29,716 nt of DNA from Albugo candida (lineage: Eukaryota), in contig JBDOQK010000081.1 of NCBI GenBank assembly GCA_040437565.1, forward strand, positions 62,001 through 91,716, read 5' to 3'. Under the pieces are notes generated by a model. That model was not told the origin of the DNA, searched no databases, and saw only the letters and a program-made list of their open reading frames with translations. Shown piece after piece: positions 1 to 29,716 of the stretch. Made by a program: the position numbers and the translations under genes. Position 1 is the first letter of the stretch; each line of letters opens with the position of its first letter.

Positions 1-3000
1 GTACTATCGGGTAAGAAGCTCACGCGATTTGAGCGGAAGTTGGGGCTTTCTTTAGAGACTGTTGAGATTCAGCGAGTTGTAGAAAATGTATCCGATGACC
101 ACAACCGCTTTATTTTTCACGTCAATTGTCGTGATACGATGGATACAAACTGGAAAATGATCACATTGGAATGCAGGACTGCGAGAGAGAAACAGAGCTG
201 GTTGAATGCTTTTTTTCATTCCCTTAACGTGAGAATCGATGAGGCCCCACATAGCGATGACATTGAGCAAGTTCCAGGCCTTCTCGATGTCTGCGAAGAC
301 GTACAATCTGAGCAAGCCACAAGACTCTTAGACGTATGCGAAGACGTACCGATCGAGCAGTTTACCAGCCTTCCAGAAGCCTCCGACAAAATTGTAACGG
401 AACAAGCTTCAGGCCTTTTGGACGTCTCTGACGACGTAAAGACCGAACAAGTTCCAGGCCTTTCAGAGGTCTCAGCTGACGAACTAATCGAACCAACCAC
501 AGACTTTGCAGAGGGCTTTGAAGACTTCCAAATTGGCAAAGAACTCGACACAACTCGAGACCTTTTTCGAGCATATCTTGTCCGTTTCTATAACACTTAT
601 AATCCAAGCAAACTCGCTTCTTTGGACGAACTGATTGCTCATTTTTCTGGAAACGATGGAAAGCGACACCTTCTCAAACAATTGGATGCGGTTTATGGCA
701 CATCCGTGTCATCTGATCCCGAAATCACTTCACTGATCGAAGAAAGAAGCACGTTTGTTGGCACAACAAAGCCTGCGATGTTGATGGAAGGATACCTTTT
801 AAAACGCGGTCATCGCATTCCATCCATGAGAAAACGCTATTTTGTACTGCAAAGTGTCGATCCGACTTTGCGATATTTCGAGACGAAAGAGGATGCTGAA
901 GGCTTTGAATGCGGCTCAAAGCCTTTAGGCGAATTTCAGGTTGCTAACGTATGCAGTTGGCACGGCCGAACGCTGACACAGACTCATCGAAATGGAATGC
1001 AAATAGAAGCTCGTGATGGTCGCATTTACTTCTGCGTCGCCTCCAGCGAAATAGAGAAAGAAAACTGGATTCGAGCCTTCCATCACGCAATCGCTAGTCG
1101 AGAGGCGCTATGTGAAGGTCCTGAGACTCTGTCGTCGCCTTTGAGAGAAAAGCTTTCCGAATTTTACGAACGAGTGAATCCATCCAAACTTTGCGACCTC
1201 GACCTTTTACTCCACTGCTACAAAGACCGTGAGACGGCTTTACTAGAAGCAATCGATTTGCATTACGGGACATCGATCACTGCTGATCCAGAATGGCTTC
1301 ATGTCTTGCCTGAGCCATCTCCTTGCCGAGACTTTCGTCTTACGAATGCTTTGGATACACTCAGTTACGAGGGTCAAATCCTTCGAGCTTCACGGACGCT
1401 CCTTACAAGTGATCTCATCTCCTCCGATTTAAATCATTTGTACGATAAAAGCGTGTCGTTGTTTGCTGTGGTTTCCGGAATCACACTCAAGCTGTACAGC
1501 TGTCGTGCTCAATGGAAAGAAGGGACAAAGCCGAATTCTATTGTGACGATTCTCAGCGTGAAAGACTTGATGGAGAATGCTGAAAACGATCTCTCGGGCC
1601 GGTTTGCTATCGAAACAGCCGATCATACGTGGCTGCTCCTTCAGGCTCTCCACCACGAAGACAAAGGTATTTGGCTCAAGGTGCTTCACGCTGCTATCGA
1701 CGCGGTGTTTGGGCAAAGTATCTTGGCGGAAGAGCAGCATAGTTGGCTTGATACACTCGAGAACGTTGTGTGGATAGAAAGAGATCATTCGTTTGAGAGG
1801 AAGGCGCTTGCACTTCGAGGGAATACGTTACGCGTTGGTATCGATAGCGATGAGGTTGTCCTGCTGGTAGAAGGGATTTCGGCATGGGAGGTGGATGTCA
1901 AGGCCTCCGAATTGCCAGAGAAGTACCCATTCCAAATCGATGCGGAAGGTGGAGTCAAACTGCGCTGTTTGGTCGAAAACGACGTTATTCGTGCGCATTG
2001 GATCCGCACAATTCGACGAAATGTGAATAGACCTGAAAACCGTTCAAGTTTGCTGCAGACTTCCCATATACGTCCAAATTCCCACATGGAAACCATAAGT
2101 TCTCAAGAGCTTGTAGTGGGTCCTTTGCTTGCTTGGAAGCATCTTGAGGCGAGTTCATTGCCAGTTTTGGTGTGTGGCGTGCTGCAAGATAATCACTTAC
2201 AATTGAAGAAATTTGGAACGGAGAATTCGAGCCATTGTGATGTATTTGTGGAAGGCTTTGTCCTAGAGATGAAGGCCTGGAAAGCTACTCTTCATGAGGA
2301 AATGAATGGTGGCGTGCAGGTCGATTTTTGTATAAAGCCTGGCGCTGAGCGTCCTGAAACAGCGTACATAGCCTTCACAAACGCGCAAGTAAGAACGCAA
2401 TGGTATGAGGTATTCCCCAAAACGACAATTCTCTCCGACAGGGAAACACATTCCAACGTTTCAGTAGAGGAAGTGAAAATAGCAGAGAATAAAGTCTGTG
2501 CTGAATCGGGTCGGGGAATCGCAAATTGCATGTTGGAGGGTCATCTGGAAATCCGATCGAATTGGAGCGATTCCCATTGGCATTTCAATGTATCACTCCA
2601 AAAAGCGTGGAAGAAATACTATGTGGTCGTTGACGCTGAGACATCGTCGAGTGTCGTACATTGGCTCATATATGCGACTCGGAGTGATGCGGTCACATCA
2701 TCGGCGGCCCTTACGTCATCAAAGAAGGTCGATGGCCCTCTTCAGGTGTACAATGTGATCGGAGGCTCTGAGATGGATACTAATGAGTGGTTCTACTTTG
2801 AAGTGATGTATTGGACGGACGAGTCTGACACCTCACAGAACGATATTTTGCATTGCCGAACAAAAAGTGCTGAGGATCGAAATCGTTGGCTGAATGGAAT
2901 CAAAGACGCGATCAGAGTGTGTGAGAGCTACTTGAGACGAGAGAAAGAGTCGTTAGAGATTCGATCGAAACTTCAAATTCTGGAATTAGATGCCAGACGT

Positions 3001-3426
3001 CAGTCGATTCAAATCAGAGAATCCCTTCAGATCGCATTAGAGGCTGTTTCTGACTCTGATTCCTCTCAGGATGCAATCTCGATGGAAAGTCGTAATTGTA
3101 CAGACGATGAGCTATACCAGAATGATTGTACACTTGATCTAGAGACTTTGCCGATGCGTCCCGAATTGAATGCATTCGAGAGGGACGAATTGTCTGTACC
3201 TCAAGCGAGCACAAAGCTTTCATTTTGGACTGCTTGGCCCCATACTGTGACTGAGTATGTTCAGAAAACATTCACATGCATTCCTCGCTCGAATGAATGT
3301 GCTCCAATGTGTCACATCTTCTTCCCCGATACAAATTGTCATTTTGTCGCAGATATCACCGGCGTCAGTGATCCGCATAGATGCGGGAAGCAGTATACGT
3401 GCGATTACTTCTCGCAAGATGCCTGA
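1..3426 (+). CDS. Large multi-PH-domain protein, 5'-partial (frame is open from base 1; the TTG at 40 is not the true start)
   Basis: Uninterrupted frame 1-3426. One clear PH domain at ~781-1095 (MEGYLLKRGHRIPSMRKRYFVL...FCVASSEIEKENWIRAFHHAI). Five further PH-type C-terminal helices with the conserved Trp: EKQSWLNAF, DKGIWLKVL, IRAHWIRTI, VRTQWYEVF, DRNRWLNGI. A second PH N-terminus reads MLEGHLEIR...WKKYYVVV. Confidence 0.88.
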   Translation, partial: VLSGKKLTRFERKLGLSLETVEIQRVVENVSDDHNRFIFHVNCRDTMDTNWKMITLECRTAREKQSWLNAFFHSLNVRIDEAPHSDDIEQVPGLLDVCEDVQSEQATRLLDVCEDVPIEQFTSLPEASDKIVTEQASGLLDVSDDVKTEQVPGLSEVSADELIEPTTDFAEGFEDFQIGKELDTTRDLFRAYLVRFYNTYNPSKLASLDELIAHFSGNDGKRHLLKQLDAVYGTSVSSDPEITSLIEERSTFVGTTKPAMLMEGYLLKRGHRIPSMRKRYFVLQSVDPTLRYFETKEDAEGFECGSKPLGEFQVANVCSWHGRTLTQTHRNGMQIEARDGRIYFCVASSEIEKENWIRAFHHAIASREALCEGPETLSSPLREKLSEFYERVNPSKLCDLDLLLHCYKDRETALLEAIDLHYGTSITADPEWLHVLPEPSPCRDFRLTNALDTLSYEGQILRASRTLLTSDLISSDLNHLYDKSVSLFAVVSGITLKLYSCRAQWKEGTKPNSIVTILSVKDLMENAENDLSGRFAIETADHTWLLLQALHHEDKGIWLKVLHAAIDAVFGQSILAEEQHSWLDTLENVVWIERDHSFERKALALRGNTLRVGIDSDEVVLLVEGISAWEVDVKASELPEKYPFQIDAEGGVKLRCLVENDVIRAHWIRTIRRNVNRPENRSSLLQTSHIRPNSHMETISSQELVVGPLLAWKHLEASSLPVLVCGVLQDNHLQLKKFGTENSSHCDVFVEGFVLEMKAWKATLHEEMNGGVQVDFCIKPGAERPETAYIAFTNAQVRTQWYEVFPKTTILSDRETHSNVSVEEVKIAENKVCAESGRGIANCMLEGHLEIRSNWSDSHWHFNVSLQKAWKKYYVVVDAETSSSVVHWLIYATRSDAVTSSAALTSSKKVDGPLQVYNVIGGSEMDTNEWFYFEVMYWTDESDTSQNDILHCRTKSAEDRNRWLNGIKDAIRVCESYLRREKESLEIRSKLQILELDARRQSIQIRESLQIALEAVSDSDSSQDAISMESRNCTDDELYQNDCTLDLETLPMRPELNAFERDELSVPQASTKLSFWTAWPHTVTEYVQKTFTCIPRSNECAPMCHIFFPDTNCHFVADITGVSDPHRCGKQYTCDYFSQDA
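265..534 (+). repeat. Coding tandem repeat, 6 x 45 nt (15-aa acidic unit EQxxxLxxVxxDVxx)
   Basis: Units start at 265, 310, 355, 400, 445 and 490: EQVPGLLDVCEDVQS, EQATRLLDVCEDVPI, EQFTSLPEASDKIVT, EQASGLLDVSDDVKT, EQVPGLSEVSADELI, EPTTDFAEGFEDFQI. Confidence 0.9.
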
Positions 3427-3779: not shown

Positions 3780-5276
3780 TTGATCGCACTCCCTTGAACC
3801 TTGACGAAGACGACGCGCTTTGATGCTTCTTACATTCCCCCACATTTATCGTACCGCTCTCGTTGACGACCTGTAAATAGACCCACATCTTCATCAACTT
3901 ACTCGGAGGATACAGTGTGTGAGTAAGACATGCCTTGGACTCGAACATGACGCAACACAAGTAATTGTTCGTGGGTCACATATTATAGAATATAGAGATT
4001 GTTCGAAGTGTTTTCTCGAAGAGGATATTGGAAGGAGACATCAAGATGGAGTTTTGGGAGACAATTGAGATCTCACGACATCATTTATATATTTTGATGA
4101 TCGAGACGTATTGCTTTTTTTTATAACGATAGTGAGCGCTTTTAAAGCATTGATTTGCGGTAAAAGATAATCGTACAAGATCCTCGTCATAAACGAAACA
4201 CAAGGGGCAGATGATGCTTTGAAACGATTGATTCATGTTCAGACTCGAGGGGGTGCCTGAGGAGGAAAAGTTGGCTTCAGCGTCTTTACGAACAAGATTC
4301 GTAAATGGCCATCCTTATTGCCGTGATTAAGCTCGACCCATTTGTTAACTGCGACATCCTCAAATCACCAGTTCATCTGATCCGCAGTCAGGACACAAAT
4401 AACTTACTGAAAAAAATTGACCACGCTTGGACTAAAGGTGCAAAAGTGTAGTATGATAGATAGCATCCATAATGCAACCATCCAAGAGGATGGACAGAAC
4501 AAAGCATGGATTGATATAAATAGGAACCTAGCAGTATATCTTGCTCGTGTCGGTGGGTACCTTGATCCTCATCTGAGATCGCTGTCACTCGACATAATAT
4601 ACCCAATACGAGGTATGTGTCTGGGAAGGCACAATAGGCGCATACCACACTTATGAAGTGCATTCTGTCTTAGCTGAGTCACAGTAGTTCGAGGTCCGGG
4701 CTTCCATAAATGCGATGATTTACCAGGCTAAATTACGTCTGAGCGAGAAAGAGTGCGAAAGTTGTCTTAATATCGTGCAGTATACCTGAAAATTGAAGAT
4801 ATCAAGAATCGACTCTTCTCATTACAGCAGTTCCTTATCGGCGTTTAGTTTGCTCAACTTCCTCAGGCTATGAAAATAATATCACGCGAGCGAAGATGCA
4901 GCACGCAGGTACCTCAGGCTAAAACTGATCAATGGTGTTGCATTTAGAATGTGACTTGATCTCTGATCAACGAATAGACGGATATTACACCATAGGAATG
5001 CTTTTAGTGCTCGAGGCACTTGATAGCTGATATACATGCAGCGAAATATGATACTTCCGCCGATTTTGGCTTCTCTTTGGTGTAGCTAAGGTCGGCTAAA
5101 CTTCATATCAAATGCAGGACCTCACTAGTATTGTTTTTCATTGGCATGTATAGGACAAAGCATATGGTGCGAGCTTACTATTATCGAAGGGTAGAAAAGA
5201 AAGGCAGTAATACTTTGATACCTTCGCCACATCATAAACGTCTCTGTCATCATTTTGCAACACGGGAGGGGGGGGG
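3780..5276 (+). pseudogene. Decayed copy A of an unidentified local gene-like family (boundaries approximate)
   Basis: Colinear nucleotide homology to ~25800-27150, e.g. cttgacgaagacgac, aacatgacgcaacacaagtaa, gatgatcgagacg, gcgatgatttaccagg, tgcaggacctcac. Weaker homology to 6150-8520. All frames carry stops or frameshifts. Coding origin and strand are inferred from shared + strand peptide remnants (FWET/FWDT, ETHC/ETYC, SYKI). Confidence 0.5.
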
Positions 5277-6149: not shown

Positions 6150-8520
6150 GAATCAAGAGAAGGGTTCAAGGAGCACAGGTAAAACAATCAAAGAATACCT
6201 GGACTGTATTAGATGGGATGTTATTAAGTAGTATGCCGATCGATTCATGAATGAGCTCATTTGTCATTCTTCATCCTCGTATGCGTTAGGATATCGAAGC
6301 TGTATGGAGACTGTGTTTTTTCGCGCTGATTGTACTTTTGTGACAGCTTGATGAAGTCGACTGGTATTATTGGTTCTGATGCTCCTTCCACGTTCAGTGT
6401 AGCACTCCTGGGAGACCTGTATGGTTGTAGCGAGAATTAAACTCGAACACACGAACATACCCCATAATAAGAATCTGCTAGCGATTCGAATTTATAGAAC
6501 AGATAGAAAAGTTCGACAGGTTCCCAAAGAAATGGATCACTCAAAGACAAAATTGGTACATTGTCTTAAGAATACATAAAATGCAGTTTTGGGAGACTGA
6601 TAAGACATTGCGATATCACGTATATATTTGTGCGTTGGGGGAACGAGACGCACTGCTTATTTTCTCTCACCGAAAGTGAACATTCCCAGACCATTTCATG
6701 CGTTAAGCGACAATCGTACAAGATCCTAGTCATAATAAAAATCAAGATGCAGATGACCAATCGTAGCCATTTCTCCACCTCTAGACTCGAGTGGACACCC
6801 AGAAAGAAGATTAGTGCAGTCGATAGACAAATCTATTTTATGGAAAAGGCCTTCGGAGGGTCAATAAAAGTAACTCAGTTGCCGCATTTTCTAAACGAAA
6901 TCCAGATGAGAAGCCACTATTTTTAGATGAACGAAATTAATTGATACTGTCGACAGTTGACCTTCGATAGTCAGCGATTTTTGTATATAATGTATATTTT
7001 ATCACCACTCCATTCTGGTTCTTAGTCAAACCACAAAGTATTTACTAAAATAAGATTGGCCATGCTTGAACTCTAAATATGTTGTCAGGATAGCCAGCGA
7101 AGTTTATCAACTTGAGGTGTGCAATGATAAAAGCGCAAAAAACAAAGCATTAATCAAGATTCAGTACTGCGAGGTTGCCTTTTTCCTTCTCAAATTCAGA
7201 TTATTCTGAAGGAAAGCATCTATGATGCGAATACGCAAAAGTTGTAACGGGAAAACGCATTAGTCAAGAGAAATAAGAGCCTAAGAACATCGGTAAGAAG
7301 AGTGTAGTTTCTCATTACAATTTTCCGAGAAGGATCCACACAGTGACGTTTTATCAATATTAAACAGCAAACTGTCTTCTCCTAGGATTATAAGCGCATT
7401 TTGTAATTTATCAGCATAAGTATATATTGCTGTTGTCGTTAGGTGCCTTGATGTCGATCTGAGATCACATACCTGAGGATTTAACATGATGCATCGAGGC
7501 ATATTCTTCCTGAGCCATTAGTCTTATTGGAACGAATATGGTTTGATAGGCGTGAACTGGCGCATGCCACACGTATAATGAAGAGCGCTCTATTTCAGCC
7601 TAGATCAACAAAGTATGCGGCAAGAGAAGCGCTTAATATTCATTTCTTGTTTGCTCTATCTGCCAAGCAAAGAATGCTTCTCAGCTTGCGCTCTTATTAC
7701 TAATCACTACCATCAAATCTCATGTGTGATATGCCTTTTTGAGTTTGCGCTTCCATAACACCAGGATAAATTACGACTGAGCTGAAATAGTGCGAAAAGT
7801 TTTCCTAGTAGAGTGGAACATAGCTGAATAAGTGGGATTGAACTTCATGATCATGCAGCCGTTAGAAATGAGGATTAAGAGTTCGCAAGTCCATGATGGA
7901 CCCTTCTCTCATGTAACAACATGACTGATGTCGCCGGATCTAAAAGAGACATACATGTAATTGAGTGGTGTAAGCCGCAATTCTCTGAGTACATGAAACA
8001 CTCTTATTTTGAGCTGCTTCATTCAAGCAAATAGTATAGTACAGTTCCAACAGCTTCCTTGAAATTGCTAGTACCGAAAAGTTTGCTGTATCGATTTTCC
8101 ATTTGAAGACTCGACTTTATACACCTGGATACACACTTGAAGGGTATGGCTATCATGGAAAGATTAAAATCGCTGACGCTCCCAGTGTTTCCGAGAATAT
8201 GAAACGAGCTGCGAAGATCAAAAGGACGATGCTGTGGCTATGCCGATACATTATAAATAGAATTTATCGCGCAAGTCAGAAATAAGCATTTTTTGATCGC
8301 TGATGAGAATATCTAGACAGACGTTACACCGTGGAGATTTTTTTTCTGCTGGAAGCACTTTGAAGCTACATATGTCGGACGAGCTATCATGGACACGCCG
8401 TTCTTGTCTTCTCTTCTATCAGCTAGCGTCAGCTGGACTTTGTCGCTATTTATAAAACATTGACTGCAAGACAATTCCAACTACTATGCTGCCAGCAGAT
8501 GGAGAATATCACGGGCATTA
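6150..8520 (+). pseudogene. Decayed copy B of the same family, more diverged (boundaries approximate)
   Basis: Shares with copies A/C: gaatcaaga..gttcaag (6150 vs 25643), atgagctcatttgtcattcttc, ttttgggagac, aatcgtacaagatcct, ccaggataaattacgactga (7761 vs 26470), and ttgactgcaagacaatt (8460) vs ttgactgcgagacaatt (26948). Confidence 0.45.
6255..6270 (+). promoter_or_regulatory. Oomycete Inr/FPR-like core promoter motif at the head of decayed copy B
   Basis: GCTCATTTGTCATTCT matches the oomycete Inr+FPR consensus GCTCATTYYNCAWTTT at 14 of 16 positions. It is followed by ATG at 6281 and a hydrophobic stretch (VWRLCFFALIVLL). The identical 16-mer occurs at 25739-25754. Confidence 0.45.
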
Positions 8521-9190
8521 TTCTTCGTTTGGATATAGAGGACGGCAAACTTGATTCAATCGTACTGATCGAGAAGGTTTCAAAAAAGATGTAGTGATCC
8601 TCTAAATGATTTAAGCCACATCTTAATCATGTTCGGCATCGTTTCGAAATACTTCTGGTACAAAAGTTTCGAAGACGTGACGCTTTCCAATCTCCACCGC
8701 TTTTGGACTCTGTGGAATATCAGTCACACGTGCGCTATCTTGGATTGACAAATTTGCAACTCAAAATCATCTCGATCAATTGATTCGAGCTAGGTTCATT
8801 GTAGCCGGGAAATGATGATAAATGAGATTGAACGGAGAAGGCAACGGCATCACCTGAAAAGCGACAAAAAATGTTGAAGTCGAGAATACAACCAAGGTTA
8901 ACACGACTTGATCCAAGACAAAAATGTGTTATACTTAGCATCAACAGCTTCATTTCTCCTCCCGATATGATTAATATTTGTTTAAGAACAGAATTCTCTC
9001 TCAGTAAACCAATTTTTAGATATCAAGTCGATCCGAGCCGTGATATACCGCAAAGATGGTTTCCTTCGTAAAGCTTGATAGAGTTCCATCTTCCATGACG
9101 AATCCTCCCTTTTCTTTGATATTTCGAGACGCACATCTCAAATATGTAAAAATTCAACGACAAAGAAATCGAGAACACTTTATCGTAAAT

Positions 9191-9382
9191 TTATTTGCGG
9201 GAAGAGAATCAGATCCACGTGAATATATGCGGGACGAGAACCAGAGCCACATGATTATACGCGGGAAGAGAACCAGAGCCACATGATTATATGCGGGAAG
9301 AGAACCAGAGCCACGTGAATACATGCGGGAAGAGATCCAGAGTCACGTGATTATTTGCGGGAAGAGAACTAAAGCCACGTGA
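9191..9382. repeat. Minisatellite, 6 x 32 bp (consensus wTAtwTGCGGGAAGAGAACCAGAGCCACRTGA)
   Basis: Head-to-tail units start at 9191, 9223, 9255, 9287, 9319 and 9351, with no spacers and only a few substitutions per unit. Confidence 0.95.
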
Positions 9383-9544
9383 ATCACTTATCAGAAATTT
9401 TGACAAGTTTGTGTCCAGAACTGTTATAGGTATCATCTGATTATGGTCACGGATCAGGTGCTAAACTTTCAGTCAAGTGCGTGATTTAATGCCCCACGAG
9501 AACTCAAGAGTTAGCTTAATAATTCCACTCACTGTGGTCTTAAA

Positions 9545-9783
9545 TATCACTTTTCTGGATAGATGAAAAAGTTGTGCGACCGTATGTTAAATACCTATGC
9601 ATAATCCGTACTATCGACTATTCTTAAGAAATAAATCCAACCATGTTCTTTCTTGGCCTTTCTCAGATGATGCAGAACCAGCATCAAGAGATATATGTAC
9701 GTTGTACGTCATTCAGATCATGATGATGAAGAGTTCAAAACCACTTATAATTTTGTGCATAATACCATTCCGACTTTGGAAGC
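9545..9783 (+). promoter_or_regulatory. Conserved upstream (promoter/5' UTR) block shared by the two GH28 paralogs
   Basis: Aligns colinearly to 28846-29111 (tttctgga.agat, gtgcgac.gtat, tatgcataat.cgt.ctatc, tcagat.atg.agaa.cagcat, cagatcatg, accactt). Both end in the identical ACTTTGGAAGC-ATG. Confidence 0.6.
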
Positions 9784-10960
9784 ATGGACTCAATCCACTT
9801 GCTTTATCTCTACGTATTCATTGCAATCGTAACTATCACCACCGCTTCACTGCCTTCAAATGAAGATTGCGAGGTGCAGGGCAAGTATAACCCCGATACA
9901 ACAAAGGAAAAATTGATCCGATGCCATACAGTCGTATTTCAAGATGTGTATCTTTCGTCGAATCAGCAACTCAATCTGTTGAATCTAAATGGGACAACTA
10001 TCAAGTTCAACGGGATTATCACTTTCGCTGTCAGGGTGAGACTTCAATCCAATTATGTGTATATATGATTCACATTTTTGCTTACATTGTTCCCTTTTGG
10101 CATTCTAGTATAATCGCATCTATTTGATGCATATTACCGGGACCAATGTACATATATCTGCTTCATCGTCCGCATGGTTCCACGCGAATGGTCAAGAATA
10201 TTATGATGGTAAAGGTTATTATGGGGGAAAATTAAAACCCATGTTTGCTATGATTGAAGTCAAAAATTCCACGCTTACAGGTCTGAAAGTACTCAACACT
10301 CCGGCTCACGCGTTTATGATCGGTGAATCGTATTATTCAGACTTCATAAACTTTGAAGTCGACGACTCATTTGGTGATGTCAATGTTATAGCTAAAAATA
10401 CGGATGGAATTCACATTTTACAATCGTCAAATATCAGGATTGTAGGCGCGAAAATTCATAATCAAGATGACTGCGTATGCATAACATCGGGTTGCGATGT
10501 GAAGATTACTAGTATCACATGCATTGGTGGTGGATTCTCGGTAGGGTCAATTGGTAAAAACAGGTTGAATACGGTTGAAAGAGTCATCTTCGGTCAATCA
10601 ACCCTCACACATGGTCTGTATGGTCTTCTTATCAAAGCATGGGCTGGAACAAAAGGCACTGTCGATCAAATCACGTTCGAAAACATAGTCTTGAAGGATG
10701 TGCGACAACAAGGCATTGCAATTACGCAAGGTTACACAAATGCAGGACTTTATTCAAAACCTATAAAAGGAGTTTCCATCACCAACGTGTTCATGAAGAA
10801 TATACGTGGAAATGTCTTGGAGAAAGGGCAAAATATCATGATCAATTGCGCTCCTGGAGGATGTGGAAATTTCTACTGGGATAATGTCAACATTGTTGGG
10901 GGTGAAAGAATTTTGATGAGAAACGCATCTGCTCCAACTGAGCTTCACAACGGACACTGA
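9784..10960 (+). CDS. Secreted glycoside hydrolase family 28 (endopolygalacturonase-like) protein; join(9784..10035,10109..10960), 367 aa
   Basis: Hydrophobic N-terminal signal peptide (MDSIHLLYLYVFIAIVTITTA). A phase-0 intron joins ...TFAVR to YNRIYLMHITG in frame. GH28 motifs: YYDGKG, LNTPAHAF, KNTDG, HNQDDC, GFSVGSIG, IK, QGY, C-terminal CxxxxC..FYWDNVNIVGG. Confidence 0.93.
10036..10108 (+). other. Spliceosomal intron (73 nt) in GH28 paralog 1
   Basis: Donor AGG|GTGAGA, acceptor TTCTAG|TAT, branch-like CTTAC at 10081. Removal restores the frame. Same position and phase as the intron in paralog 2. Confidence 0.9.
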
Positions 10961-13507
10961 TACGTGCATTGCTTTCTCTGCCTAGCTGTACAGAATCCTG
11001 TCATTTTAATGTTGCGTAATATATGTCGCGTTTGTGCTGGGATGTCGTTATAATGATGTACTTGCAGTTAGTGAGATGAGCTTCTTAATCACACGGTCTG
11101 GCTCCAAAGACCTACTCGAAATAATAGTGCTTCAAAGTGTGTCTTTCACATACATTTTGGTATTCAGCAGCATCAGCAAGCGAAAAATGTACACCAATTT
11201 GAGAGCTACATCCTCTTAATTGCGATATATCTCTTCCACTACCAGTTTATCGTAGCTTGATCAGTACAGTTGAGTGTTTCAGGGAAGTGAAGCAGGGATA
11301 CACGATGATACATTTTCTTTTCCATATGGGCGTGAGTATTTGATGTTAGATGATGATGGGGCGTACTGAATGTCTCGGATAGTGCGTACCTAAAACTTAA
11401 CTGCCTTAGAACTATGAAAAAGAAGACGACAAACACAGCAGGCTTGCGACCCTTTTTGTAGATTGACCTCGGAAAGACCGTTCAAATCTCCAACGGCGCA
11501 TCTGAGCGTTTTGCAGGATTAGGATACATAATCTTTTTTACTTTGCGAACGATAAATGATAAATGAAAATGTACTATATCAAGTGAAGAAGATACTCTAT
11601 ACCTTAGCAGCATTTGTAGAGCTGCAAGAGAACGTATCGCGAATAACTATTGCATATCAGAAGTTAGTACTCGATAGTGCTGCGCTGTCTTTAGTCTCAA
11701 GTCACTCTCTGTATCCGGATAATGTTGTGCTTGAGAAATAATCAACAGATAACTTCCTTAGAAAAGACACACCAATGTAAAGTATCCTCGTGGCCTAACG
11801 GCTATACGTATGCGCAGAAAAATCCTTGTGTCCTCGGTCGTCGAAAAAGTTCAATATGTTTGGGAGATGGTTTCTGATATATTGAGTCAGAGCTGGATAT
11901 TACGCCCTGAAGTACACAGCGCTACTCTGTCGGCGGATTATGCAACGCAAAATATAGATCAGAAGTCAGATCACTAAGGACCACTCAGTTGCTCCATCTG
12001 ACCGGTTGTGCAGGCGATTTTTACGCACTCGGTATTTGCAACGCTCTTGAACGCAGCTACGATTGATTTCCATGACGGTGCAATTCGATTGTGGCATGGA
12101 ATAACGATTTAGCACCCTAATTCTTGTAAATACTTAGTTCTCCCGATGCAGGAAATAGATATAGCCGGCTCAGATTTTTCACTCTATTGATTGGAGTCCA
12201 CTTAGGATTGTTTTATTCGATTTCCTGTAGGCAGTGTGCTAAAGCTCTCACGTTTCAGACGTGACGATTGTCACCACGATGCTGAAATTACTTACATTTG
12301 CGCTATTTTTGTCTGAAGACAGCTGAACATAATGAACACCATGGGAAGATGACCTCAGGGCGCTGGAATTGTAGGAGTGGGAGTGGACAAGACGAGTAAA
12401 AATAATACGGCTGCTTTACCCACCATTACATCCTTTTTCAACTTGATTACATACAAATTGCCATGCAATCCAAAGAATGTTCACTGTCTAACCACTAGAG
12501 TGTGCTTACCCTGTTCCTACTTCAGTGAGTAATTGCCAGCAATGGATATTGACGCAACATGCCCGATCAATGCAATGAGAGCACTAATGAGGCTCGATCT
12601 TGGTTGTTACAGCATCGTATTTTCCACAATTAGGTATCTTATACTATGTTTGTGTGTTTTGCATTAGCAAAATCAAATAGGACGGTTGCGACATGATGGC
12701 CTTGAATTTCTCTAGATATGCAATTGATGTATGATCGTCTGACTCGAAATCGAATCAATAATGAATTCTTGCAGCTCCATCTGCTCCAATATCGGTTCGC
12801 ACTTTCAAGTAGTACTTTAAAGAATGGATCGAGTTCTTCCGAGTTCACGTAGTGTTCGCCTCCAAGATTGTGTCCTCGTCACTTCGGACAAAGAAAAATT
12901 GCTGTATGCTGGTTTACATCATCCTTGGGTCAAGCTCAGCAAGAAAAAGAATTGATCTATGCTGAAGAAGCCATAATATCCTCAATGCTAGCTAGCTAAG
13001 GAGCACCCAGCATAGCTACCAAATAGCTAACAGGATACGCCCTCACGAAACTTTGCAGATTGAAAAGCTGTGCATTCACTGTCGGCTTCCTACTTCAGCC
13101 TTCCTCACTTGTAGGCACTTCTATATATCCTGAAATTTCTAGTGTCGAACATAAAAAGCTCGAAATCGACGGTTACAGCTAATAAGTGGGAGGAGCTAAA
13201 CACAAACACAAGATCCTTATCACGCTGTATTGGCATTTGGCATACCCTAGTATTGAGTAACATGAGCACCGGATGGTCTCCAAAGTCTCAGCTCAGCTTC
13301 CTGCAAAGGCCCATACATATAGAAGCTGGTTCCAACACCCACCCTCGGGCGCCATTTATTAAATGACAGATGTCTGACTTACATGATTGCCAAATTCTTT
13401 CGTCTTTTACCCTTATGTCTTTACGTGAACAGCTATTACACAATAAACGTCAGCGGCAATTTTTCAAGGGAATTGCTAAACTTGTTGAATCAAAGGGGTT
13501 GCATTGT

Positions 13508-13706
13508 TTTGCTTTGATTGGCTTGGCATTGGCGAGAGCAACTGGCTGGTCAACCATTCTAGTCTAATGTTCCCTTATCGCCTTGATGGCACAAAAGTTG
13601 GGCGACTGACGTCCAACTTTTGTGCCATCAAGGCGATAAGGGAACATTAGACTAGAATGGTTGACCAGCCAGTTGCTCTCGCCAATGCCAAGCCAATCAA
13701 AGCAAA
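13508..13706. repeat. Perfect inverted repeat (hairpin): 94-bp arms, 11-nt loop
   Basis: 13508-13601 is the exact reverse complement of 13613-13706, with loop GCGACTGACGT. The right arm ends at the N gap (13707). Confidence 0.92.
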
Positions 13707-15414
13707 NNNNNNNNNNNNNNNNNNNNNNNNNNNNNNNNNNNNNNNNNNNNNNNNNNNNNNNNNNNNNNNNNNNNNNNNNNNNNNNNNNNNNNNNNNNNNN
13801 NNNNNNAACTGATGAATGAAACTGTGCATATATTCTTTGATTGTATCTGTAAGAAATAGCAACGAGGGTCGGCTGTTAAACCAGGAGAAAAGTGAATATA
13901 GCTTTGAATCATTTGATTGGCAACATTGGAAGACTGAACGTCCTCTAATTGGCTATCGTATTTTTGGAGTTTTTTTAGGCCGGCCAAAATTTTGCTACCC
14001 GAGCCAAATCCCTTGGACTTTCTTGGTTTTAGAATTCCCATATCTTCGCCAAAAAAAACCCAGAAATATATCTGAGTCTGTAATCTTCAAGCCTTTTATC
14101 TCTAGTTTCGTATGACAGAGCCAGATTTCGATCAAGAAAAATCCTACTGGCTGTGATAAGGCCCGAACGAACCCTTAGATAGTAGATGGTTATTGATGCC
14201 CCGCACTATATCGGTTGACACTGAAATCTACCGCCAATCATCTACCTTCCCGCAAAATGTCTATCATAATCCTCCTGGACCTGACGTGGATCTTTATCGA
14301 GGACGGTGAAACAAGTAATCAGAGCTGCGGCACTCTCTGACGGCTTACCAGTGAAAGTTGCACGATCCAGAAAAGCCGGAAAGCGTCCTTAGAACGAAGT
14401 GCGAGTAAAAGTTTAAAGTGCGAGCATGCTGGTACTCATCACGACCCAGATCGCCCCAGAACGCAAGGAAACGAAGCCATAAATGTTTTAACTGTATTTT
14501 ACACGTCACTTCAAAGCGCAGGGAGCCAGGGGCTTGGCAGTTAGAGATAGATAATAGAACTCACAACCATGACCTTGTGCATCTTAGTGCACATTCTCTG
14601 TACGCAGGCTTGGAAATACTGCACGTCAGCAGGTGTCTTTACTTCACAATGCTGCTGTCCCTGCCAGAGCAATCTTTTCAATGATTCAGGTAAATGATCA
14701 ATCTTGTTGTGCTACAGTTAAAATATGGTAATAACATCACGCAAGCTTTACGCAGAGACGTTCTTGCTGGGCGCACACCTTTGGAAGCTCTACTTGATAA
14801 ATTGTTAGTATGTCTCCATCCAGAGTTACATCGTGTTCACAGAGATGGCACAAATCAATTGACTGCTCTTCTGGTTCTTCCTAATTCCAGCAAAGAAATT
14901 ACCGAGCATTTTTGTGCAAACAAAATCTGGATTTTAGACTGCACATACAACACTGAACGTTTTAACTTGCCTGTGTTGTATGGTGTAGGGATTGTATCAA
15001 GCAATGATTCTTTTACCCTATTTTATTGTTTCTTGACAGGAGACACAGAGCAGGATTACACTTGGACATTGAATTCTTTTCAGTCAATTTCTCATTTAAC
15101 CATACTTGAAAATTTGATGTTTGTCACGGATCGGGAACTTGCGCTCATGAACGCCCTTGGGACTGTACTCCCTGCAAGCCCAAATTTGATCTGAAAATGG
15201 CACATCTGGACTAGTTTGGTTGCTAATTTACAAAACAATCGAAACATTCTGGTGGGGGAAAGCGGGGACACGTTTTCATCAGATTGGAGGAAGCTAATGG
15301 ACTCACCAAACCTGAAAGGATTACGGAACAAATCTAGAAAAAATGCACGATTTTTTCATACTTGAAACAATCATGCACCAGCTCGAACGAACATGGTTAG
15401 CATACAAAGAGAAA

Positions 15415-17817: not shown

Positions 17818-19661
17818 TGGTCTCGGCATCAACTTTTTTTAGGACACACAAGCATCCTTATCAGATCATTCGGATGGTGACACAAAACACGACACGGCGC
17901 GAGTACCGTATGACATCACACAAAAGACCAAGCTATCTTCAAGATCGAATCCATGGATCATATACCTATTACATTCGATGCTGTTTCTATTAATCGACCT
18001 AACGTGAACTGAGGTATTATATCATGCAACGATGAAGTTTACGGAGACAGCCGAGAGACTGCACTGACACCTTATTGATCAGATGCATAATTATTCATCT
18101 TGTCCGAGGGATATTTGGTCACTTGAGTATTAGTGTCTCCAGGGTGCAATCGTCCCGATGCTAATTGCATGAGAAGGACAGCGTTGATGCAACCTATATC
18201 ATAATCATTATTGATGAATACACCTGACTTACGATAAAACTCTAAGCACGAATTGATGCATTTTTGACGAACTATTTGATTGTGTAGCATTCCAGCAATA
18301 ATCACGGTTTAGGAAAGGGGGCCATCGAAACAGGATATTTCTTATAGTGGGATAAATTAGAGCCTTTGTTCCTAAGCGATCAAGTCAAAAATAATTGAAT
18401 GTCTGAAGAGTCAAATAGTCCTCGATTCTTTGACGAGACAAATCAAATTTATAACGAGAACTACGATGCATTTTACATCCACATTCATAAACAGAGATGC
18501 TGATTCGCTGATTCGAGGAAACGATTTTGGTGGATTTTTTAAGCATCATAGTCGTTTTTTACGATGCGAGCTTTACTCAAGATTTTGGTATCTCTATAAC
18601 GCCACTTTTTAACGACTTGTCCAAATGTACAGGCCTTGGTTTAACGATTTGAGGCCTTGCGAACAAGTGGATGTATGATATGTCGTGGTNNNNNNNNNNN
18701 NNNNNNNNNNNNNNNNNNNNNNNNNNNNNNNNNNNNNNNNNNNNNNNNNNNNNNNNNNNNNNNNNNNNNNNNNNNNNNNNNNNNNNNNNTGGTCTCGGCA
18801 TCAACTTTTTTTAGGACACACAAGCATCCTTATCAGATCATTCGGATGGTGACACAAAACACGACACGGCGCGAGTACCGTATGACATCACACAAAAGAC
18901 CAAGCTATCTTCAAGATCGAATCCATGGATCATATACCTATTACATTCGATGCTGTTTCTATTAATCGACCTAACGTGAACTGAGGTATTATATCATGCA
19001 ACGATGAAGTTTACGGAGACAGCCGAGAGACTGCACTGACACCTTATTGATCAGATGCATAATTATTCATCTTGTCCGAGGGATATTTGGTCACTTGAGT
19101 ATTAGTGTCTCCAGGGTGCAATCGTCCCGATGCTAATTGCATGAGAAGGACAGCGTTGATGCAACCTATATCATAATCATTATTGATGAATACACCTGAC
19201 TTACGATAAAACTCTAAGCACGAATTGATGCATTTTTGACGAACTATTTGATTGTGTAGCATTCCAGCAATAATCACGGTTTAGGAAAGGGGGCCATCGA
19301 AACAGGATATTTCTTATAGTGGGATAAATTAGAGCCTTTGTTCCTAAGCGATCAAGTCAAAAATAATTGAATGTCTGAAGAGTCAAATAGTCCTCGATTC
19401 TTTGACGAGACAAATCAAATTTATAACGAGAACTACGATGCATTTTACATCCACATTCATAAACAGAGATGCTGATTCGCTGATTCGAGGAAACGATTTT
19501 GGTGGATTTTTTAAGCATCATAGTCGTTTTTTACGATGCGAGCTTTACTCAAGATTTTGGTATCTCTATAACGCCACTTTTTAACGACTTGTCCAAATGT
19601 ACAGGCCTTGGTTTAACGATTTGAGGCCTTGCGAACAAGTGGATGTATGATATGTCGTGGT
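17818..19661. repeat. Exact 872-bp direct duplication across an N gap (17818-18689 = 18790-19661), probable unmerged contig overlap
   Basis: Constant 972-nt offset and identical ORF translations in both copies. Copy 1 ends and copy 2 begins exactly at the 100-N gap. Confidence 0.9.
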
Positions 19662-21688: not shown

Positions 21689-24600
21689 ATCCTTCCCGTG
21701 TGAGCATACTCACCAGATGAACAACACAACTCCGTGAAGCTCGCTGAGTCGGGGCGCTGGGTGGGTCCTGCTCTGAATGTTTCCACACATTTTCTTGAAC
21801 TCGCGGTACTGCAACTTCATCATCTTCTTTTTTCCAGATCTTTGACAAACTTTTATCGCACATCGATGTGTTTCGCTGGACCGGACGTGTCCTCAACCTT
21901 GATCTTAGCAATGGCTAATTGGTTGTCCACGTGTAAAATTGAACTTGGCTGAATTTGTTTGCCAATTTCATTTAGAAGTTCCATAATTACCATCATCTCA
22001 AATGTTTCTGAAGTCGTAACAAACTCGGCATTCATCTTTTAGAGCAACAAACTTCTGCTTTTTGAAAATCCATCCAACGATCATTCCACTCACCGTTATC
22101 ACACCAACGCTGACTGACTTCTGAGCAATCTTTTCTGCGGTGAAGTTGGCGTCCATATGCCTCGACCAACACGTCGTCGTTACCCATTGCAATCTTAGCT
22201 CCCCGCATCATGACTTTAATGCCTTTGTGCCTTTGAGATACTTGACTATCTTCTTTGCCAGACTCCAATCGCTCTCACTTGGCGCGTGCGAACTCCGAGT
22301 TTCTCGGTTCACCGCATATGCTATGTCTTGCCGTGTGCACCGAGCTATTTATAGTAGCCTACCCACCAGCAACTGAAACGTCCGCATAATCGGTCTCTTT
22401 GGAGAGCCACTTCCACTAGACGGCAACAATTCAATTTCTTCGTCTCCATCTTTCTCATATATAGGCACCCTTACTGGCACCGATTCGGCTAGCCCATATT
22501 GTCGACCATCTCTTCAATAATATTTTCTTGATCGATTGTCCATCCGGTCTCTTCACTGCACTTAAACACGATACCAAGACACTTGGTTATCACGCCGAGA
22601 CTCTCTAACTCAACAGCTTGCATGTCGCTGAAAAAGTCATCGACCTTTTCCGCACTGGTTCCCGTCGCCCGGATGTCGTTCACGTACATACTCACAAGCG
22701 TTTTACCCATTAGTCTCAGTCTTGATATATAGACATGTGTCTATCTATATAGGTCTGACTGAAACCCAAAGACATTGTGATCTCTTAAAGCATCAAGCTG
22801 CACAACCGTCTCGACTGTTTTGAGGCTGTACAGGCCTTTCTTAAGTCGCAACGCTAGTTGTCCCTTGTCTTGAAAGCCGAGCTTTTCCAGCCACATTTTA
22901 TTTATTTCCATTTCCGGCGGTATATGGAGTACTATCTCCAAGTCGTCTTCTTTTTTGGCAGTAAAATAAGTGCCCGGCACATCGCCGTGTTTGCAGGTAC
23001 TCCTCAAATGTTAGACACTGCAAGTATCACTTTCCTGGACACCATGTCCATCCCAGACGAAAAGGTATAGGTATAATCAGCACCATAAACATGTTTCTCT
23101 CCGTACGCCACTAGTCTTGCATTGTATCTTTCGATAGTACCGACAGCGTATATACTAAGCTTGTATACCCATTTGCTGTGCAGTAACTTGGCTTCACGCG
23201 GTTATCGGATCACTCCCTATGCGTCAATCTGGATGCGCATTCCCTCCTCCTACTGCTTTACTCGAGGGCCTCTCATCTCTTTGCGCTAGTTATCGGGGTA
23301 TTTAAGGGTAATCGAATTCACACGGCTTGCTGTCACGTGCTTGGTATACAAGTTGCGAATATTTTTCCAATGTTTGTCCGCAGGAAACGGCTTATCACCT
23401 CTGTTGGTTTCTTCTGGTTCATCCAGATTATTTATAACCGCCGGATTCTTGGCTTCCATAACACAATTCATCTTCGACTATGCTGTTTTCTTTCGTGAAT
23501 TCTTCTTGCCTTCAGGAGTATTGTGGTCCTTCGTTCTCTCTTTGTGGTGTAGTACCACCTCTGAATCCTTCCGTTTCGCGACTCCGTTGCGCTCCATCAC
23601 AGAGATTTGCTACATGGATTTTCGCGCTCAATCTGCACCAGAAGCTTCGCGTTCTACTCGCTGTTGAGTGTCCCAACGTTGCGTATGTGCTGTGTTGTTA
23701 TGACTATTCTCTCCTTCGGCAGGTATACTATAATCCATCAGTCTCGTCGTTATTGCCAATTATCATTCCAACCTGGGATCTTGGCGTCCATGTTTGCTTT
23801 TCAGGTTTCCTATACGTCAAGAATGGTCTGCCAAAAGCTACCATATCCGCCAGGTTAGGGATCCTAATCTTCAACACCTCCAGCGATGGCACACGCTCCC
23901 GGTGGCGCTGGACGAGCTCCAGTTCAAATTATAAGTCACACACTCAACGGGCGTCGTCCCTCAATAATAAAGGGAGGCCACTCGCAAACAGCATGCGTCT
24001 TACGATGCTGACTAGCTTCCTGTGCATCCAGTCAGATTTTACATTTGAAGCCTGATTATCAGCTTCGCTTGCTTACGCAAGCCGACTTGCAAAACTGGTC
24101 GACGTTGACGTGCTCGTTACGACCGTCCGTGCGCAGCGCATGGAACCAACAACTTTCTTTTGTCTAAGTAAACGTGGTTTGTCTAGTAGTCGAGAAAGTG
24201 GATAAGGTAACGATAAGCATGTCGGTCTTGCGTTGTCATAGGTCCCTTGGTGGCTCTCGCTTCCTATTACTCCACCAAACTTGTCGGACGTGATCTTGTC
24301 AGTATCTTTTTTGGACTGATTGTTCTTGCTCTGCTTTCCCTTCGCGCAAGTTAGGCGATTTCTTCGAGCTCGGTTTGTCAACCGTATTCTTGAGCCCACC
24401 GAGTCATCCAGACGCTCGAAAGTTTCTTAGGCAAGGTGACCGAACGTCTAGTGCAAATCTAGCACGGCTGTATCCGTTACGGCTTCAATTATTCCATCGT
24501 AACCTTGTATAATGTCTGACTGGACCACTCGAGCGCGCATTTTCGTTTTCTCGCCCATGTCGTCAATTGTTAGGACGTTGTTGTGGCAGATTATTTCAAA

Positions 24601-24860
24601 AATCTTCAGATTATCCCCTTGGCGGACCACGTAGCTTCTAGTATCAACTCTCTTGAGGAACACACCACGCTCTTTTAATATACCATAGATGATGATGTTG
24701 GCAGCGAGGTTTTCAGCGTAGCAAACCTCTGTTTGATCGACTATAACCTCTTTGCCATTTACTGGTGTCCTCAGCTTGGCCAATCCTAGCTTGGAAACTA
24801 AGACCATCGTTATTGTTTGCCGCGCGGCACGATTGAGTATACAAATTCGGTCGCTCAATA
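21533..24860 (-). mobile_element. Decayed, 5'-truncated Ty1/copia retrotransposon (protease region-integrase-RT-RNase H-PPT-3' LTR)
   Basis: Minus-strand relics in copia order: LH*TFGH...TCAKGKQ (integrase HHCC), KWVYK...ARLVAYG, HGDVPGTY, LKKGLYSLK, MYVNDI (YVDD variant), QKSVS...GWIFKKQKFVAL, LHVDNQLAI, KHIDVR. Many stops and frameshifts. No gag or 5' LTR seen. Confidence 0.9.
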
Positions 24861-25639
24861 TATATCAGTCCAGAAGGTGACAGAAAATGGCGCCTCTGTG
24901 GGCATATACACTGAGAAAATGAAACAATGATGGAATGCAGCCAATTCAGTCGTACAGCTTTTCCCGACCGCGTTGTCTCACATCACTATAGGTATTGTGC
25001 CAAATCACGAGTGCTTGAGACATATAGAAACAGAACTTCCAGTAGAGCAGACAAGTATCGATTATACTGTTTTGTGATAGAAGGCATAGTCAGGAATGAT
25101 ATGGTTTGGGTAGATCATACGCAGCACAACTACATTTGATACATTGTAAATACTTAGTACCCTGAGGCTGACGTTCAGATTTCTGCAAGATCGATCTCAA
25201 ATTGACACTGGGACTTGTGTGTTTTGAGGGGATAACCGGATCTTAGTCAAGTCTAGAAGACGCTCAAAACGAAATCGAGAAAAACGGAATTTGATGATAA
25301 TGAATAGCTCCGCTATATGATGCTACGTAATGAGAGCTATCTGCAACGAAAACATTGCATACAATGAGGAGTAAATGCGAGAGGTCTTGTCATCGATTGC
25401 AAGTCAAAGTTGCATGGGCAATTTTCTTCCTTTATTCTACTTGGGGGCTAAAGCTACTCCAAACATATTTGCTTACAGCTGACTCAGGAGGATGACACGT
25501 TTCAGACAATATCATTTGGAAGTAAGCCTCCTAAGGAATGTCAATTTGCGTAGATCGTCTGATCACCTCATGAATTCTGACTGCACTAATATTATCACCG
25601 AAAAGAGAAGAATTCTTCCGCCACACCCAAGAAGCGTGC

Positions 25640-27150: not shown

Positions 27151-29411
27151 ATTCGAAAAGATCTAAGACGTGATGCATTTTATCTTCAATGCCACTTTTC
27201 CACTCTTTTAAAAATGTGGAATATGCTGCAAGCGTGCTTTATCTTGTATTATCGAAACATATAACATAGCAACATCTCGCTGAATTGATACTTCCATGGC
27301 GCTCGGTTCTTAGTTATATTAAGACGCAAAATATAATAAATTCATGGAAAAATAAATCGAGTGCATCTTCTCGTACGTTTTTTGCTGACGAGAACCAAAT
27401 TCACCGGATGAAACATTTGTCAGAAATCTAGCAAGAAAATTGTCATAGGCGACATCTGACCAAGATCGTGTATTAGGTGTTAAATTGCAGTCAAGTGCGT
27501 GACTAATGCCCAAAGAGAAATAAAGAATAGAGAAATAGATCTCCAATCTTTGTGCTCATTCGCTATCATCTTTCTGGAAAGATCAGGAAGTCGTGCGTGC
27601 GACTGTATCTGAATCATCATATGCATAATTCGTGCTATCAACAATTTTTAGATGAACAAATATGGCCATGTTTTGCATCTGTTCTATTCAGATAATGTAG
27701 AATCAGCATAAAGAAAATTGCGTGCACTTAGATCCAGATCATGCTCAAGACTGTAACACCACTTGAGATGTGCTTCTTCCTTCTCACTTTTTGATTTCCT
27801 GGACACAATCAAATCATCACTTTGGAAGCATGAACTTGGATTATTTGTTTTATATCTATGCTATCACTGCAATCACATCGGAGATCAGCGCGAAGTCACC
27901 AGTGCGACAAGATTGCATGATGAAAGACACGTACAATCCCAATACACTACCGCGTATGCTACAAATGTGCCGCCAGTTCGTTTTTGAAAACCTGCATATT
28001 TCAGCGAACCTTCAATTCCGTTTACTGGACTTGGATAATATAACAATCATATTCGAGGGCAATGTTACTTTCGAACCCAGGGTGAGACCTCACTTCAGTC
28101 GTTTATATTCAGAGCCACTTCTTCTAACANNNNNNNNNNNNNNNNNNNNNNNNNNNNNNNNNNNNNNNNNNNNNNNNNNNNNNNNNNNNNNNNNNNNNNN
28201 NNNNNNNNNNNNNNNNNNNNNNNNNNNNNTTGACTGCGAGACAATTTGAAGTATAATGTGACCAAAAGGTGCAGGACCTCACGTGTAGTGTTCTTCGTTG
28301 GAACGTATAGTACAACACATATGATGCGAGCTTACTAATGAAAACGGGTATAAAAGAAATGCAGTAATACTTTGGATTCTTCAAGCCAAATCATAATGAT
28401 CTCTGTCATCGTTCCCAACAGTTGGGGGGAGCATTCGAAAAGATCTAAGACGTGATGCATTTTATCTTCAATGCCACTTTTCCACTCTTTTAAAAATGTG
28501 GAATATGCTGCAAGCGTGCTTTATCTTGTATTATCGAAACATATAACATAGCAACATCTCGCTGAATTGATACTTCCATGGCGCTCGGTTCTTAGTTATA
28601 TTAAGACGCAAAATATAATAAATTCATGGAAAAATAAATCGAGTGCATCTTCTCGTACGTTTTTTGCTGACGAGAACCAAATTCACCGGATGAAACATTT
28701 GTCAGAAATCTAGCAAGAAAATTGTCATAGGCGACATCTGACCAAGATCGTGTATTAGGTGTTAAATTGCAGTCAAGTGCGTGACTAATGCCCAAAGAGA
28801 AATAAAGAATAGAGAAATAGATCTCCAATCTTTGTGCTCATTCGCTATCATCTTTCTGGAAAGATCAGGAAGTCGTGCGTGCGACTGTATCTGAATCATC
28901 ATATGCATAATTCGTGCTATCAACAATTTTTAGATGAACAAATATGGCCATGTTTTGCATCTGTTCTATTCAGATAATGTAGAATCAGCATAAAGAAAAT
29001 TGCGTGCACTTAGATCCAGATCATGCTCAAGACTGTAACACCACTTGAGATGTGCTTCTTCCTTCTCACTTTTTGATTTCCTGGACACAATCAAATCATC
29101 ACTTTGGAAGCATGAACTTGGATTATTTGTTTTATATCTATGCTATCACTGCAATCACATCGGAGATCAGCGCGAAGTCACCAGTGCGACAAGATTGCAT
29201 GATGAAAGACACGTACAATCCCAATACACTACCGCGTATGCTACAAATGTGCCGCCAGTTCGTTTTTGAAAACCTGCATATTTCAGCGAACCTTCAATTC
29301 CGTTTACTGGACTTGGATAATATAACAATCATATTCGAGGGCAATGTTACTTTCGAACCCAGGGTGAGACCTCACTTCAGTCGTTTATATTCAGAGCCAC
29401 TTCTTCTAACA
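26948..29411. repeat. Exact 1182-bp direct duplication across an N gap (26948-28129 = 28230-29411), probable unmerged contig overlap
   Basis: Constant 1282-nt offset and identical ORF translations, with boundaries exactly at the 100-N gap. Creates a redundant copy of GH28 exon 1 at 27830-28081. Confidence 0.9.
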
Positions 29412-29716
29412 GAAATTCTTTTTGTTATTCTAGTATAATCGAATCGATATGATGCATATCACTGGGACCAATGTACGTATATCGGCTTCACCGGACGCAT
29501 GGTTCATCGCGAGTGGCGACAAATATTATGATGGTGGAGGTTACAACCACGGGAAATTAAAACCCTTTTTTGCGATGATTGAAGTCAAAAATTCCACGAT
29601 TACAGATCTGAAAGTACTCAACACTCCTGCACACGCGTTTATGCTCGCAGAATGTTATGATTCATATTTTGATAATTTCCAAGTCGACGACGCATATGGT
29701 GATGATACCAAGCATC
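29112..29716 (+). CDS. Second GH28 polygalacturonase-like paralog, 3'-partial; join(29112..29363,29434..>29716)
   Basis: Exon 1 is 84 codons, the same as paralog 1. After splicing it reads YNRIDMMHITGTNVRISAS...YYDGGG...KLKPFFAMIEVKNSTITDLKVLNTPAHAFM, clearly homologous to 10109 onward. No stop before the window edge; the catalytic motifs lie outside the window. Confidence 0.9.
29364..29433 (+). other. Spliceosomal intron (70 nt) in GH28 paralog 2
   Basis: AGG|GTGAGA donor, CTAAC branch point at 29406, TTCTAG|TAT acceptor. Same position as in paralog 1. Confidence 0.92.

Follow-up and report, generated by a model that had tools for sequence, protein, structure and literature searches.

A GH28 subfamily of Albugo without the active-site histidine and arginine of endo-polygalacturonases, and a possible change in specificity

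The GH28 enzymes require three catalytic aspartates, and mutation of His223 in the Aspergillus niger polygalacturonase (PG) PGII nearly abolishes activity, this histidine being thought to tune the environment of the aspartates (PMC8952511). Rhamnogalacturonases are described in the same review as active GH28 enzymes that do without the histidine, and methylation beside the cleaved bond as a block to ordinary PGs. The sugar in the +1 subsite is held by the equivalents of the T3-loop asparagine, His177, Arg256, Lys258 and Tyr291 (PMC5143973, PMC4556634), and mutations of this asparagine in another endo-PG lower kcat/Km by 8- to 187,500-fold (PMC4556634). Here we describe a GH28 gene of the white rust Albugo candida that retains the three aspartates and has lost both His223 and Arg256. 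It lies in a stretch of 29,716 nucleotides (positions 62,001 to 91,716 of contig JBDOQK010000081.1, assembly GCA_040437565.1), hereafter the window, from whose first letter all window coordinates are counted. Active-site residues are numbered as in A. niger PGII; Cys29, Cys47, Tyr122, His151 and Tyr293 are numbers of the window protein itself. An original prediction, made from the letters of the window, had noticed the two losses and proposed an attenuated pectinase, an enzyme of altered specificity or a decoy for host inhibitors.

The catalytic core of the protein is in place and the +1 side is not. By gene model and alignment, the NTD motif (10397-10405) stands within K-NTDGIH (10394..10414), where Asp180 is kept, lysine replaces His177 and histidine replaces Asp183, and QDD (10463..10471) supplies Asp201 and Asp202. 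Bases 10517-10552 encode TCIGGGFSVGSI; the G-H-G of canonical endo-PGs is represented there by TCIGG-GFSVGS (10517..10549), with an in-frame deletion of His223 that leaves Gly224, Ser226, Gly228 and Ser229 untouched. The canonical RIK reads LIK (10628..10636), with leucine for Arg256 (CTT, as in four of four paralogs) and Lys258 kept. HMMER alignments to solved endo-PGs likewise place a one-residue gap at His223 and a leucine facing Arg256. Tyr122 (10220..10222) takes the place of the T3-loop asparagine, by the columns of an alignment that is gappy in this loop. Asn178 is kept, as is Tyr291 in the form of Tyr293 (10733..10735), a position occupied by tyrosine, phenylalanine or tryptophan among the closest relatives (clade A, below). 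His151 (10307..10309), at the position of Gln/Met150, is invariant across the Albugo-type GH28 proteins. NTDGIH, as opposed to NTDxFD, is the plant-PG form of the motif, near the Arabidopsis RLP42 epitope, and the change would hint at evasion of plant immunity. All these features lie on the plus strand, and the motif readings of the original prediction, including the retention of the downstream lysine and tyrosine, proved accurate throughout.

The gene runs from an ATG at 9784 to a stop codon at 10960 on the plus strand and encodes 367 amino acids in two exons. Exon 1 (9784..10035) carries the start codon, a putative signal peptide judged by hydropathy (top 12-residue value 2.57, residues 7-18), the first coils of the beta-helix and Cys29 and Cys47. 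It is followed by a GT..AG intron of 73 bases (10036..10108) and by exon 2 (10109..10960), which holds the GH28 catalytic domain to the stop codon (PF00295, 202 bits against a cut-off of 22.9, E 1.4e-59) and whose top matches in the PDB are fungal endo-PGs (E 6e-47). The same exon layout is found in the paralogs, among them the annotated CCI41872.1 (P0162).

Among GH28 proteins at large this combination is rare. A survey of the 150 best representatives, after exclusion of four Albugo-type proteins and 16 partial ones, gave 147 domains from 130 non-Albugo proteins that span the site. His223 is kept in 134 of these domains and absent from 13, nine of which have a broken aspartate triad as well. 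The triad and lysine persist without both histidine and arginine in one domain of the 147, that of Lygus lineolaris polygalacturonase 4a (PG4a; P0083), an independent case, useful for comparison, with asparagine at both positions. Position 256 is looser, being histidine in 18 of the 147. A closer search returned a canonical site in all 115 of its non-Albugo hits (His223 in 115/115 close fungal hits). When residue columns were compared between 77 non-Albugo rows and 13 Albugo-type rows, including eight of clade A, the His223 column was histidine in 77/77 of the former and a gap in 8/8 of clade A. Leu256 is likewise fixed in 8/8 clade-A rows and His183 in 13/13 Albugo-type rows. Histidine at position 150 occurs in 13/13 Albugo-type rows against 11/77 others, and the T3-loop asparagine, in a gappy loop alignment, in 63/77 non-Albugo rows against 1/8 of clade A.

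The original prediction treated the losses as the oddity of one gene. They are instead the trait of a subfamily. A profile (Pfam) search of the window's own genome assembly (G000, 7503 contigs) gave ten GH28 matches, all ten of which were scored. Clade A comprises four genes there, all with His223 deleted and leucine for Arg256: the window gene, a second paralog at the end of the window, and two on contig C59. The second paralog shows its exon 1, intron and the start of exon 2 at 29112..29716 (plus strand) and continues on contig C266, to which it was joined through 204 identical overlapping bases; there it reads CNGGGFSVGS and LIK. Clade B consists of three different genes, all on C59, with asparagine for the histidine and RIK kept; one of them is found in two copies that have the same translation. 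None of the seven Albugo-type genes (0/7) has a canonical site, all seven lack the histidine, and four lack the arginine as well. The GH28 inventory of the assembly is incomplete, as an A. candida clade-B protein, P0297, has no match in it. Two proteins of A. laibachii, F0WD02 (CCA19073.1) and F0WCZ9 (CCA19070.1), fall within clade A with both changes present; as one of the two groups with the window gene (support 99/97), the changes are older than the split of the two species. The sister of clade B (100/99), P0016, keeps histidine and arginine. With this His-bearing protein beside clade B, the simplest reading of the tree shape is that the histidine disappeared from the Albugo lineage on two occasions, through a deletion in one case and a substitution in the other.

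The Albugo-type proteins (window gene, L002-L008 and P0016) have fungal PGs as their best matches and form a clade of their own, apart from PGs of the Phytophthora/Aphanomyces type. An approximately unbiased test did not reject a single oomycete GH28 clade (p 0.3), and a separate acquisition of the Albugo genes from a fungal source is possible. A search for more distant GH28 members in Albuginales found none beyond 11 clusters (best 120 of 306 matches). One fragment (L018, G000:C3152:1-501) was considered as a canonical Albugo PG and set aside, as it ends before the histidine site and looks foreign: its 501 bases have a GC content at third codon positions of 0.74 against 0.39-0.49, and it shares 71.5% identity with a PG of Phytophthora fragariae. 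It probably comes from a different oomycete whose DNA entered the assembly.

An assembly error or a decaying gene is a rival reading that the fragmented assembly, with its stretches duplicated around gaps, would favour. The locus was compared with contigs assembled from two DNA-type runs (X4, X15) and two further runs (X6, X7). The contigs of X6 and X7 are the same in length and depth, as if one data set had been filed twice, and the two were counted once; none of the runs with the locus is recorded as RNA, X6 being taken as such by guess, and contig depths were not used for ranking genes. X4 and X15 contain no alternative letters or indels at the motif sites and read through the intron. A 1529-base contig of X6/X7 skips the intron exactly and matches 10108-11371 with no differences. 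X15 differs from the window gene at ten coding positions, six of them synonymous and none within the motifs. One point against is a one-base deletion in a run of A at 9903 in X4; it occurs in a single contig of depth 5 and is probably a homopolymer error. The ratio of non-synonymous to synonymous substitution (dN/dS; Nei-Gojobori-type count, exon 2) is 0.36-0.48 across the six pairs of the four clade-A paralogs. Since both changes recur in four paralogs, in two A. laibachii proteins and in the runs compared, an assembly error or decaying pseudogene is largely refuted and hardly to be entertained. The claim that the gene is maintained holds, in that it is spliced and kept by selection.

Among the clade-A rows the three aspartates and Lys258 never vary (8/8), which is true of 8 of the 40 other charged positions (Fisher p 0.004). 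An AlphaFold prediction for P0162, a full-length paralog 69% identical to the window protein, shows the likely fold; its predicted local distance difference test score is 92.5 overall and about 98 around the shortened loop. This model overlays endo-PGs along the beta-helix at Z 44-47.5 with a root-mean-square deviation (rmsd) of 1.4-1.7 A (top match Z 47.5, rmsd 1.4, 333 residues aligned), against Z 37.5 for a xylogalacturonan (XG) hydrolase and 35.1 for a rhamnogalacturonan (RG) hydrolase. As modelled, the clade-A scaffold is an endo-PG fold.

Arg256 pairs with the carboxylate of the galacturonate at +1; the RG hydrolase 1RMG has a hydrophobic residue at this position, and the XG hydrolase 4C2L has no arginine there. 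As the losses in the window protein cluster on the +1 side and the catalytic core is kept, we infer that pectate would be a poor substrate and that the pocket would suit a neutral group at C6. The reading we favour, tentatively and at just short of an even chance, is a hydrolase that is slow or of changed specificity and takes a neutral sugar, either methyl-esterified galacturonate or rhamnose, in its +1 subsite. Of the possibilities raised by the original prediction, altered specificity or an attenuated pectinase fits best. Clade A, an Albugo-specific GH28 subfamily, would derive from an endo-PG. The window protein, probably secreted by way of its putative signal peptide, would still bind and hydrolyse a pectic chain by an inverting mechanism, with Asp201 as the acid, Asp180 and Asp202 activating water, and Lys258 and Gly228-Ser229 holding galacturonate. 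Its +1 subsite would have been rebuilt through the deletion of His223, the change of Arg256 to leucine and the replacement of His177 and the T3-loop asparagine. Such a subsite would be expected to give very low activity on plain polygalacturonate and may suit a substrate with a neutral, methyl-bearing +1 sugar. Alternatively, slow cutting may loosen the middle lamella with the release of few immune-active oligogalacturonides.

A bolder form of this proposal, which we regard as fairly unlikely, would make clade A a new specificity class: an endo-hydrolase derived from endo-PGs that cuts methyl-esterified homogalacturonan or the galacturonic acid-rhamnose bond, with a +1 pocket rebuilt in parallel with that of the rhamnogalacturonases and the histidine dropped twice. 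If true, it would let an obligate biotroph without pectin methylesterase loosen host walls without alarming de-esterified fragments and evade PG inhibitors; direct cleavage of methylated pectin would also make such an enzyme useful in technical applications. The genomic context fits the favoured reading too: profile searches of the assembly gave no match for pectin methylesterase, acetylesterase or PL1, and found a single PL3 pectate lyase (L020, contig C29) adjoining an assembly gap. This is in line with the accessible text of PMC5700374, where pectin esterases are reported only in Peronosporales.

Several points weigh against a working hydrolase of altered preference. The changes taken together could kill the enzyme, given that His223 mutants are nearly dead and T3 asparagine mutants crippled, and the residues that compensate in endo-RG hydrolases (Lys196, Glu198, lysine at 207, Phe/Trp at 150) are absent. 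The Tyr291 position drifts to phenylalanine or tryptophan in clade A. One paralog (L004:1477-2337, minus strand), a contig of which is present in X6/X7, has phenylalanine there and has lost both cysteines of the disulfide adjoining the catalytic aspartates; P0005 has lost one of the two. For a core enzyme, a dN/dS of around 0.4 indicates loose constraint. The conservation of aspartates alone (3/3 against 4/9, p 0.16) is not a significant excess, and the eight clade-A rows are not independent, representing about six gene lineages. The absence of esterases from an assembly of so many contigs is soft evidence, and host esterases could supply pectate.

One rival is a pseudoenzyme with affinity for pectin or oligogalacturonides, which might for instance capture damage signals or be anchored in the wall, its aspartates and lysine being kept for binding or folding. 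We consider this unlikely, yet a serious contender. Near-dead His223 mutants of PGII (PMC8952511) and the joint alteration of four cleft contacts speak for it, as do beetle GH28 pseudoenzymes under purifying selection (PMC6549527) and the view that biotrophs avoid lytic products (preprint 10.1101/2022.05.16.492175). The window gene resembles the beetle cases in expression, purifying selection and altered key sites. Degenerate GH28s elsewhere, however, mostly lose triad residues too (the 9 of 13 above), the beetle pseudoenzymes that were tested bound no pectin (PMC8213348), and dropping the arginine that binds a carboxylate would be an odd route to an oligogalacturonide sponge. A further rival is an ordinary endo-PG of near-normal kinetics, in which His150, His183 and Lys177 would compensate. 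Its sequence and fold are indeed nearest to endo-PGs, histidine is tolerated at position 256, and with no canonical Albugo-type gene found in the assembly some member may need to do the normal job. Clade B, which keeps the arginine, is the better candidate for that job, however, and His223 is retained in every close fungal hit and in most wider domains; a characterised endo-PG without it was not found in the literature surveyed. This reading seems to us decidedly unlikely.

The idea of a decoy for polygalacturonase-inhibiting proteins (PGIPs), an inactive paralog soaking up the host inhibitor and shielding an active PG, has the precedent of XLP1 in Phytophthora (PMC8960721), and by the title of Caprari 1996 His234 of a Fusarium PG is needed for activity and not for PGIP binding. 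Clade B could serve as the protected partner. But all three catalytic aspartates are kept in the window protein, unlike XLP1 with its lost catalytic carboxylate, and no canonical Albugo-type gene to protect was found, although clade B may be active and one or more known A. candida GH28s are missing from the assembly. Moreover, a review names His188, Arg267 and Lys269 for substrate binding and PG inhibition (PMC12620375), and the equivalents of the first two of these three are changed, which suggests escape from the inhibitor rather than bait. A beetle GH28 pseudoenzyme was not bound by classical Brassica PGIPs (PMC8213348). The XLP1-type decoy of the original prediction is thus weakened, and we hold it to be improbable. 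The neutral-sugar hydrolase remains our preferred reading.

Degenerate GH28 paralogs and active His-less GH28s are both already known; what stands out is a whole family in a biotroph without a histidine that has been called strictly conserved. An A. candida genome paper includes five polygalacturonases in its effector tally, with no comment on them in the accessible text (PMC13585763). No mention of the histidine or arginine loss in Albugo GH28 was found in the open literature surveyed, which is weak evidence of novelty. The 'polygalacturonase' counts obtained for white rust by automatic annotation may refer to proteins other than ordinary PGs, and this is relevant to how obligate biotrophs get through walls unobtrusively. 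A review of fungal GH28s poses as an open question the strict retention of His223 in PGs and XG hydrolases and its absence from RG hydrolases (PMC8952511). Albugo makes it testable by offering a natural series on an endo-PG scaffold with the triad intact: P0016 with histidine, clade B with asparagine and the arginine kept, and clade A with the histidine deleted and leucine for arginine.

Blocks at 3785-5217 and 8500-10372 match 25803-29697 at about 80% identity, 18-22 kb apart, and are probably an old segmental duplication that gave rise to the second paralog. Identical or inverted copies beside gaps of 100 N at 26948-29435, 17818-19089 and 13508-13706 are probably scaffolding artefacts, as may be the duplicate clade-B gene on C59; exon 1 of the second paralog occurs twice (27768, 29049). 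A 32-base unit is repeated six times in tandem at 9192-9384, some 400 bases before the GH28 start codon, and is found at this one genomic place. Elsewhere in the window are a long open frame with several PH domains (1-3426) and five 45-base repeats (265-501), a remnant of a Mutator-like element (MULE) transposase (14694-15194) and, on the minus strand at about 22000-25000, disrupted frames that have, on visual inspection, the look of a retroelement.

Set against known systems, the window protein is nearest to the fungal endo-PGs (A. niger PGII 1CZF, C. lupini 2IQ7, F. moniliforme 1HG8), sharing the beta-helix as seen in the paralog model (28-34% identity in structural alignment), Asn178, the three aspartates, Gly224, Gly228-Ser229, Lys258 and, by alignment, three disulfide positions. 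It differs from them in the deletion of His223, in Arg256Leu, His177Lys, Asp183His and the change of the T3 asparagine to tyrosine, and in having neither the WxGP motif nor the C-terminal cysteine pair. The clade-A proteins F0WD02, F0WCZ9 and CCI41872.1, 60-70% identical to it and with both changes, carry the automatic label endo-polygalacturonase; no characterisation of them was found in the literature surveyed. The endo-RG hydrolase of A. aculeatus (1RMG) is also an active GH28 enzyme without the histidine, there substituted (Gly220) and here deleted, but it is distant (20% identity to the P0162 model, Z 35), and of its other described features, Glu202, Lys200, Lys207 and Phe/Trp150 (PMC8952511), the window protein has Asp, Gln, Thr and His instead. 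The endo-XG hydrolase 4C2L shares the aspartate triad, keeps the histidine that is deleted here (PMC8952511) and is likewise distant (Z 37.5, 23% identity). Beetle and mirid GH28s (Phaedon GH28-2, -3, -6, -7 and -8; Lygus PG4a) parallel it in active-site substitutions within expressed, conserved paralogs, but they are of separate origin, the beetle ones sit beside active canonical paralogs, and GH28-3 has lost a catalytic aspartate. Phytophthora sojae XLP1, a secreted oomycete paralog, shares with the window protein an altered active site and, probably, secretion; it belongs to another family (GH12), lost its catalytic glutamate by truncation and shields an active paralog. The window protein conforms to none of the three patterns of canonical endo-PG, endo-RG hydrolase and XG hydrolase, and on present comparison it appears to be a GH28 member most like an endo-PG in scaffold, with a +1 side resembling that of an RG hydrolase.
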